Below, piece by piece: positions 47,091 through 47,161 of a stretch of DNA of 64,000 nucleotides. The stretch lies in the sequence record OR532814.1; one strand, 5' to 3'. The notes beneath the pieces were generated by a model. The model had not been told where the DNA came from. It worked only from the letters and a program-made list of their open reading frames with translations, and ran no database searches. Both the position numbers and the translations under genes were made by a program. Source of the stretch: Klebsiella phage RCIP0020. The stretch's first letter is position 1; each line of letters starts with the position of its first letter.

Positions 47091-47161
47091 GATATCCTCC
47101 TTCGTTTCGATGTGTGTACAATAACAGATTGGGGTTATAGAGTTTTAGCAATTCGTGCTAA

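Follow-up and report, generated by a model that had tools for sequence, protein, structure and literature searches.

The closest described relatives of the element considered here are the promoter-early stem-loop (PeSL) cassettes of T4-type phages (Arbiol 2010, PMC2839356; Comeau 2014, PMC4122927). In the available text of these papers, the cassette is defined by a promoter, a stem-loop and a Shine-Dalgarno (SD) sequence. It is intergenic, lies in hyperplastic regions upstream of small open reading frames (ORFs), carries a sigma-70-like early promoter with a terminator stem-loop over the -35 or the spacer, ends in an SD and an ATG, and is tied to mosaic junctions. The stretch of DNA analysed here, referred to as the window, comprises 64,000 nucleotides (nt) of Klebsiella phage RCIP0020 (OR532814.1). 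Sequence comparison assigns this T4-like Klebsiella phage to the genus Slopekvirus: over positions 46000-50000 it shares 100% identity with phi_KPN_S3 and others and 97.7% with Matisse. In this phage, about a dozen early transcripts are predicted to begin with the same 13 bases, A-TCGAAACGAAAC, and these first transcribed bases, as placed by the predicted start, are conserved about equally to the -10 hexamer.

PeSLs and the early promoters of T4-like phages are already known. Definitions of phage promoters usually stop at +1, and the early-promoter logos of Nolan 2006 end at the start site, whereas here the conservation runs 13 bases past it. No mention of a conserved start sequence was found in the available text of the PeSL literature (PMC2839356, PMC4122927), and the words 'leader' and 'untranslated' are absent from the text of Arbiol 2010 (PMC2839356). 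A literature text search with the strings TCGAAACGAAAC, ATAGCACTTTTTG and CATCGAAACGA returned unrelated primer matches only; likewise, it gave no published description of a T1 start sequence, and nothing on a conserved start sequence was found in the literature on T1-like or cyanophage early promoters. A description of the motif was therefore not found, although sequences that appear only in figures are unsearchable, so that prior notice is possible.

The start sequence and its register with the -10 hexamer

The conserved unit consists of C-1 and A+1 followed by TCGAAAC(G)AAAC, contains the direct repeat CGAAAC GAAAC and lies 7 nt past the -10 hexamer in every copy. Its core, TCGAAAC(G/A)AA, is present in the window in 10 promoter-context copies, with the core T at 10752, 11413 and 12034 on the plus strand and at 27032, 42783, 47110, 47472, 47869, 49564 and 53975 on the minus strand. 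A promoter scan of the window yielded two degenerate copies in addition, at 21285 (TCGAAAAC) and about 30970 (CAGAAAC), both on the minus strand. All copies lie on the strand of the downstream gene. An unanchored search with TCGAAACGAA, allowing at most one mismatch, gave 17 matches in the window, 10 of them in an intergenic promoter context. With CATCGAAACGAA and at most one mismatch, 6 matches were obtained against 0.59 expected, a number reached by none of 100 shuffles. The full 23-mer proposed in an earlier note on this DNA gave 3 matches at up to three mismatches against 0.00 expected. Sequence searches recover the element in all eight intervals listed in that note, from which the copies at 10752, 27032, 21285 and 30970 were absent. 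Its estimate of at least a dozen copies holds as well, since a whole-genome pass over phi_KPN_S3 located about 16 promoter-linked copies, all among small hypothetical genes.

The position of the motif just downstream of the -10 turned out to be a fixed spacing: in 10 of the 10 promoter-context copies from the unanchored search, the motif begins exactly 7 nt past the hexamer. In all aligned copies the seventh base after the -10 is a purine and the sixth a pyrimidine (Y-1 R+1), a start context at 7-8 nt past the -10 that is typical of a sigma-70 initial transcribed sequence. The predicted transcript start reads (A/G)UCGAAACGAAAC. The six bases ahead of the motif vary (gtgttc, acacac, gcattc, gggcct, ggcctt, agccct, gacctt) and represent the discriminator; the GTGTGT(T/A) that had been taken as the conserved part is thus not part of the element. 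Upstream, T-15 is present in 12 of the 12 rows and G-14 in 9 of the 12 rows of a 12-cassette alignment, corresponding to an extended -10. A preference for C at -3 to -1 has been reported for RB49 early promoters and is said to fit 5' end mapping (Nolan 2006). The annotated starts of the T7 promoters A1 and A3 are the A of CCATCGAGAGGG and the A of CACATGAAACGACAG, respectively. As judged from promoter geometry, the motif most probably corresponds to transcript positions +1 to +13.

The distance to the start codon is far less constant. The window cassettes, in which an SD-like sequence precedes each AUG, have this codon at +21 to +33; in the phi80 pL transcript it is at about +410 and in cyanophage-like contigs at about +18 to +19. 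Since this distance varies and the spacing to the -10 is fixed, the promoter and not the ribosome site sets the position of the motif.

In the 12-cassette alignment, mean information amounts to 1.07 bits for the -10 hexamer and 0.47 bits for the discriminator. The value of 1.30 bits at -1 to +8 is inflated, because these positions served to find the copies, while +9 to +13, which were not used in selecting copies, reach 1.03 bits. The row of the copy at 30970 is out of register in this alignment, which can only lower the information values.

The promoters appear to be host-RNA-polymerase (sigma-70 type) early promoters in small portable cassettes of the known PeSL type, and an identical motif is present in RB49, the founding PeSL phage. 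Judged by eye, 7 of the 12 window copies directly follow a G+C-rich hairpin, with the -35 in the loop and the closing T-run merging into the -10; a scan for terminator-like hairpins flags two of these seven (Table 1). Such terminator-like hairpins adjoin or overlap the promoter, as does the stem-loop of PeSLs. The hairpin-type copies have TTGACT, TTGCAA, TTGCAT or TTGCCT at 17-18 nt, in agreement with a sigma-70-like promoter, and the -10 hexamers in the window are TATATT, TATAGT, TATCTT, TATTGT and GACTAT. Three or four copies have an ATAGCACnnnnTTGYTA block exactly 22 nt before the -10 instead. An SD and a start codon follow the motif, the downstream genes are annotated as hypothetical proteins, and exchange of modules is apparent in the one locus examined (47461-47473). 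The cassette would accordingly be laid out as [terminator hairpin and/or -35 block]-[(TG)-10]-[6-nt variable discriminator]-[start sequence]-[SD]-ATG. It differs from the published PeSL in that 5 of the 12 window copies are hairpin-less and in that the motif is also found outside T4-like phages.

The copy flagged in the earlier note belongs to a cassette (47093-47130) that reads ..TATTGT acacac A TCGAAACGAA GGAGG atatc ATG on the minus strand. At the place orthologous to the hairpin upstream of the copy at 47858-47870, the Matisse annotation has a 'terminator', and the whole 5' untranslated region (UTR) of the cassette with the copy at 12033-12045 differs little from that of a gene in a T1-like phage. 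ORFs called mechanically extend through the motif and acquire false N-termini: those that start upstream read ..CYI(T/A/G)(H/F/L)(I/V)ETK(Q/E).. through the leader, which bears out the suggestion that the conserved peptide at several N-termini is spurious.

Table 1. Copies of the start sequence and adjoining elements in the window
Feature	Position	Strand	Associated elements
Flagged copy, A TCGAAACGAAGG, predicted +1 to +13	47099-47111	-	Leads straight into SD GGAGG (47096-47100) and ATG 47090 of ORF 46839-47090
-10 TATTGT of flagged cassette	47118-47123	-	Block TTAGCACGAATTGCTAAAAC 22 nt upstream (T1-type promoter block)
Copy A TCGAAACGAAAC	47461-47473	-	-10 TATCTT 47480-47485; downstream gene begins MKLVREAIKL
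Copy A TCGAAACGAAAC	47858-47870	-	-10 TATATT 47877-47882
Terminator-like hairpin, -35 TTGCCT in loop	47885-47913	-	Directly upstream of copy 47858-47870; PeSL architecture
Copy A TCGAAACGAAAC	49553-49565	-	-10 TATATT 49572-49577
Terminator-like hairpin, -35 TTGCAT in loop	49580-49607	-	Upstream of copy 49553-49565; terminator in Matisse annotation
Copy G TCGAAACGAAAC	42772-42784	-	Weak -10 GACTAT 42791-42796; -35 TTGACG; without hairpin
Shortened copy G TCGAAACAAAGG, merges into SD	53964-53976	-	-10 TATATT 53983-53988; hairpin upstream
Copy G TTGAAACGAAAC	27021-27033	-	-10 TATAGT 27040-27045
Degenerate copy A TCGAAAACAATG	21274-21286	-	-10 TATATT 21293-21298; upstream hairpin with TTGACT
Degenerate copy A CAGAAACAAAGA	30959-30971	-	-10 TATATT 30978-30983; upstream hairpin with TTGACT
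Copy A TCGAAACGTAAA	10751-10763	+	-10 TATATT 10739-10744; upstream hairpin with TTGACT
Copy A TTGAAACGAAAC	11412-11424	+	-10 TATAGT 11400-11405; hairpin with TTGCAA; AATAGCAC block before hairpin
Copy A TCGAAACGAAAC	12033-12045	+	-10 TATAGT 12021-12026; block ATAGCACTTTTTGCTA 22 nt upstream of -10

Occurrence of the motif in other phages

A short BLAST search with one cassette gave matches in many unrelated phages. The sequence CA TCGAAACGA(A/G)AC is found 7 nt past a -10 in the T1-like phages ESh4 and PaulSarasin, both of which also have the ATAGCAC block, in RB49 and in a KVP40-like Vibrio phage. Scanning IMG/VR with the pattern TANNNT-N7-TCGAAACGAAAC resulted in at least 120 loci in at least 113 unique contexts; frequencies in this database represent samples and not a census. 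Among the matches listed, the pL promoter of lambdoid phages constitutes the biggest group, with T1-like and T4-like contigs as further members. The phi80 record annotates pL with -35 TTGACC and -10 TTTAAT, and an identical CA TCGAAACGAAAC is in place with the motif beginning 7 nt past this -10; the pL promoters of HK225, Stx and other lambdoid phages share it. The phi80 element differs from the window cassettes in that a structured leader of about 400 nt with the nutL boxA separates the motif from gene N, no SD follows, and a single copy per genome takes the place of a dispersed family. The T1-type (Drexlerviridae) cassettes have the start sequence, terminator hairpins inside the cassette and, like some Slopekvirus copies, ATAGCACnnnnTTGYTA exactly 22 nt before the -10, whereas T1 itself has the loose start consensus ATC(G/A)A(A/C)AACGA. 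In G+C-rich contigs with cyanomyovirus-like genes (70-79% similarity), the order is CCCTGTAGACT-N7-TCGAAACGAAAC with an ATG after 4-5 nt and no SD. The region examined of the cyanophage isolate S-WAM2 has only a degenerate version, TACCAAACGAACC after CCCTGTAGAAT, so the claim for cyanophages rests on the IMG/VR contigs. Furthermore, an unanchored IMG/VR scan gave a promoter-context copy on a 360-kb jumbo contig.

The fixed register is also apparent where it was not imposed by the search. In an unanchored IMG/VR sample of TCGAAACGAAACAC, TANNNT occurs at spacing 7 in 26 of 109 contexts, and every other spacing from 0 to 15 accounts for at most 5 of the 109 (among the matches listed). Unselected near-matches (10-11 of 12 bases) in 2.1 Mb of loci show 37 cases at spacing 7 compared to 1-9 at the other spacings from 4 to 10, with mismatches gathering at +11 to +13 and sparing +2 to +8. 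In the anchored IMG/VR sample, the unspecified positions -1 and +1 read CA in 84 of 99 contexts, and a -35 TTG or an AGCAC block is present in 78 of 99 contexts compared to 17 of 102 for a control pattern with an information content similar to that of the motif pattern (both among the matches listed).

Bacterial genomes give a different picture. In a scan of 596 Gb with 15 specified bases, anchored matches were mostly chance, and a -35-like TTG accompanied only 14 of 117. Of these 14, about five resemble prophage promoters of the lambdoid pL type, four belong to a single orthologous gene family in Clostridia metagenome-assembled genomes, and one lies in a Flagellimonas assembly as a Slopekvirus-like cassette. 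The Flagellimonas sequence (Flagellimonas marina, NZ_JBHSCL010000010.1) comprises a Slopekvirus-type hairpin-promoter-leader cassette and a gene start, ..TATATT agccttg TCGAAACGAAAC cactgaggagattcaccATGACTAACCTGACTAAAG, and is probably phage DNA in the assembly. At the four Clostridia loci, an orthologous 113-amino-acid gene (MSVIFSAAITGLG..) stands behind the anchored motif in a Firmicute setting, with TTGACA-N18-TAT(C/T)AT-atgttta-TCGAAACGAAAC upstream. These loci were not accepted as evidence of wider use of the motif, as chance plus orthology could account for them. Similarly, at about 35450-35475 on the minus strand of NC_001416, some 130 nt into the pL transcript, the lambda N leader contains GTGTGTGATACGAAACGAAGCA, which matches 17 of 22 positions of the window plus-strand copy GTGTGTTCATCGAAACGAAACA. 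This sequence is not at a start site and was set aside as a curiosity.

The same string in the same register thus occurs in phage groups that have no common transcription factors, with hosts from Klebsiella to Vibrio and possibly cyanobacteria. As far as sequence comparison can tell, the motif is no repressor site peculiar to one phage but part of a portable early-promoter cassette that is widespread among phages. This distribution also bears on the possibility that the motif is a DNA operator just downstream of the start, through which a phage or host repressor would shut off early promoters. Positions +2 to +13 are the classic place for a roadblock operator, and the direct repeat CGAAAC GAAAC would suit one. 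However, the motif is spread over phage families and hosts without such a common regulator, lacks dyad symmetry and has a 5' half that is strongly kept on its own, which makes an operator very unlikely.

Candidate roles of the start sequence

The motif may constitute the initial transcribed sequence (the first ~13 nt: A/G+1, U+2, CGAAACGAAAC) of portable early sigma-70-type cassettes, a role that is favoured here with modest confidence. Transcription would start at the purine before TCGAAAC. Beyond U+2, neither U nor TG occurs for at least 12 nt, and the sequence is A-rich. Such a U-poor, A-rich start would speed the clearance of very strong promoters by RNA polymerase, with few abortive cycles or initiation pauses as the result, and would provide an open, unpaired 5' leader for ribosome loading. 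In addition, a string shared by many cassettes would act as recombination homology that moves genes between cassettes and phages, and recombination together with selection on expression would keep it nearly identical across phage families. The register with the start is fixed whatever follows, be it an SD, a 400-nt nut leader or an SD-less ATG, which points to a function in initiation or at the 5' end of the RNA.

The effect of the first transcribed bases on promoter escape has been studied in vitro with 262,144 sequences (Heyduk 2018). Changes at +2 to +10 altered escape over about three orders of magnitude, and among slow sequences the first ~7 bp contained 2-3 T, frequently in the form of TG pause motifs. 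The composition of other phage leaders is in line with a start sequence of this kind. A second Slopekvirus leader family, C|GTAGACAAGAAA, also has R+1 T+2 followed by a T-free, A-rich run, and T1 promoters, with their degenerate versions of the motif, contain 47% A and 15% T at +3 to +15 compared to 28% and 26% genome-wide. The T7 promoters A1 (ATCGAGAGGG) and A3 (ATGAAACGACAG), both strong early promoters for the host RNA polymerase, start with C-1 A+1 U+2 followed by a U-free run. A1 has CATCGA in common with the motif and A3 has GAAACGA..CAG; at the annotated starts, A1 reads CCA|TCGAGAGGG, its CCA|TCGA being analogous to the start context of the motif, and A3 reads CAC|ATGAAACGACAG. They differ from the window copies in that +1 is located 8 nt instead of 7 nt past the -10, in that the 12-mers are others, and in that they are not in terminator-promoter cassettes.

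Several observations weigh against the initial-transcribed-sequence role. Fast escape has been tied to stronger RNA:DNA hybrids, and T at +2 was reported as slow in the lacUV5 context (Heyduk 2018); an A-rich sequence does not obviously provide stronger hybrids. If only a physical optimum for RNA polymerase were at work, an identical 12-mer would not obviously be required, and T1 itself tolerates many variants of the motif, so that exact identity elsewhere probably owes much to copying. The motif is present in only about one third of this phage's candidate early promoters. Finally, host promoters do not seem to use it, which hints at something phage-specific.

Copying could also be the whole explanation, in that the string has no role in expression and persists in a selfish or promiscuous cassette whose copies, as recombination homology, recombine with one another through PeSL-type modular shuffling and mini-circles, and are thereby homogenised and passed between co-infecting phages. 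For the MKLVREAIKL gene (the 47461-47473 locus), homology to two related phages begins at the -10/leader, with unrelated sequence upstream, which makes this a mosaic junction. An RB49 mini-circle sequenced by Arbiol 2010 (PMC2839356) has its crossover between the SD and the -10. A T1-like phage and the window phage have near-identical whole 5' UTRs, TCGAAACGAAACA(C/G)ACAAAAGGAA..ATG, which indicates horizontal transfer between T1-like and T4-like phages, and among the matches listed, lambdoid phages of many immunity types differ in their operators and -10s but have the same leader from +1 onward. On the other hand, the discriminator differs between copies while the 7-nt spacing and Y-1 R+1 are kept, which suggests a constraint tied to the start site and not mere homology. 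The build-up of mismatches at +11 to +13, sparing +2 to +8, is a polarity that homology alone would not yield, and unrelated leaders (the GTAGACAAGA family, the T1 variants, T7 A1 and A3) have the same compositional design. Recombination as the sole explanation is therefore considered unlikely and ranks second, after the initial-transcribed-sequence role. To go by the junctions and the shared leaders and 5' UTRs, copying clearly contributes to the identity of the 12-mer across families, and the motif marks, and probably serves as, a joint where expression cassettes recombine.

The motif could instead act as a 5'-terminal RNA tag, the first ~13 nt being read by a conserved host component that sets stability, translation or elongation. 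Candidates would be the 5'-end sensors RppH or RNase E, ribosomal protein S1 or Rho/Nus factors. Such a tag agrees with the predicted position at the very 5' end in every phage group and with the retention of the motif before the non-coding phi80 pL-nutL leader, SD leaders and the SD-less 18-19-nt cyanophage-like leaders. The motif is predicted to be single-stranded, is U-poor (RNase E prefers U-containing sites) and appears phage-restricted in the bacterial genome scans. However, the loose variants of T1 are more readily explained by a graded physical effect than by recognition at a specific binding site, complementarity to 16S rRNA is lacking, and we know of no partner with specificity for the motif, making a tag doubtful. 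An encompassing proposal, that AUCGAAACGAAAC is a pan-phage 5'-terminal element standing like the -10 and read by the host RNA polymerase during initial transcription or by a 5'-end-dependent RNA factor, is likewise regarded as rather improbable. If true, T4-like, T1-like, lambdoid, jumbo and cyanophage-like viruses would all keep it for a privileged transcript start, and it would be more than homology common to the cassettes.

The earlier note had proposed a transcribed regulatory element to which a translational repressor or RNase (RegA/RegB) would bind, or which would form a riboregulatory structure. Transcription of the element is very probable, and its conservation extends past the usual promoter boxes, whereas the proposed RegA/RegB or riboregulatory function is the least probable of the readings and hardly credible. 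The phage does encode a RegA homologue, and the motif is, like the RegB sites and RegA operators of T4, an unpaired and unstructured element in early-gene 5' UTRs. RegB cuts GGAG/U within unpaired GG*AGRAYARAA, and RegA operators are A+U-rich, unstructured and overlapping or immediately 5' of the AUG (Uzan and Miller 2010, PMC3014915). The motif has neither target feature: ATCGAAACGAAAC is without GGAG, which is present only in the separate SD of some copies, and it is not A+U-rich, with one U in 13 nt. It does not overlap the AUG, from which it is separated by a variable 8-20 nt or more, and it is anchored to the -10 and positioned from the start site. The distance of the AUG varies from +18 to about +410, and the same motif in the same register is found in T1-like and lambdoid phages. 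To our knowledge, these phages encode no RegA or RegB.

RNA structure prediction, a check named in the earlier note, does not support a riboregulatory structure. The leaders are less structured than their shuffles (minimum free energy z +0.1 to +2.1), and 54-87% of the motif is unpaired. At gathering score, the only Rfam match in the window is a tRNA, leaving the leader unmatched, and lambdoid and Clostridia leaders gave no Rfam match. A structured cis-regulatory RNA is disfavoured on these grounds. An rRNA-pairing (epsilon-like) enhancer was rejected: the best duplex with E. coli 16S rRNA reaches -7.2 kcal/mol compared to -11.1 +/- 1.9 kcal/mol for shuffles, 99.3% of which bind at least as well as the leader. 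Taken together, the variable AUG distance, the lack of GGAG, the occurrence in T1-like and lambdoid phages, the absence of structure and Rfam matches and the weak 16S pairing disfavour an operator, a riboswitch-like structure and an enhancer. Below threshold, the Rfam family rnk_pseudo (the Pseudomonas rnk leader) matches 47877-47992 and 49572-49646 on the minus strand with E 0.07-0.33 and scores of 27.7 and 24.4 bits against a gathering score of 55. These matches cover the terminator hairpins of two cassettes and not the leader, and most likely reflect only a generic hairpin plus U-run shape.

If promoter clearance or 5'-end marking is the true role, the motif would offer strong expression from a compact, transferable part, would serve as a practical marker when early transcription units and true start codons are annotated, and would mark the joints of phage gene swapping. 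If recombination homology is all there is to it, the shuffling of PeSL cassettes would extend from T4-like phages to exchange between families.

Further promoter elements and features of the window

A second promoter block, (A)ATAGCACnnnnTTG(C/T)TA(AAA), is located at 12000-12020 and about 11355-11375 on the plus strand and at 47140-47160 on the minus strand. It precedes the -10 by exactly 22 nt, a distance too great for a normal -35. Of the 18 blocks of this kind in phage T1, 15 have precisely this spacing. The block may represent either an unusual promoter class or a factor-binding site common to phage families.

At three or more other early-type promoters, the -10 is followed by a second conserved start sequence, C|GTAGACAAGA(A/C/T)A, located at about 6632-6645 on the plus strand of the window and, in phi_KPN_S3, at 57029 and 155258 on the plus strand and 23377 on the minus strand. 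Among the IMG/VR matches listed, it is nearly confined to Slopekvirus-like contigs, with one T1-like contig and one 45-kb contig besides.

The source phage appears to differ from the phi_KPN_S3 record, and its genome is possibly mosaic, since 60-nt probes at window positions 1 and 5001 have no exact match in phi_KPN_S3 and the coordinate offset between the two sequences shifts between 9 kb and 46 kb.

Lastly, the very A+T-rich intergenic region at 56790-57065 is bounded by a 42-nt inverted repeat and contains a direct duplication of about 115 nt, each copy of which has a near-consensus promoter (CTTGAC..N17..TATAAT) and clustered GATC sites. Promoter-like sites are present on both strands, and the region is a candidate for a replication origin or for divergent control.

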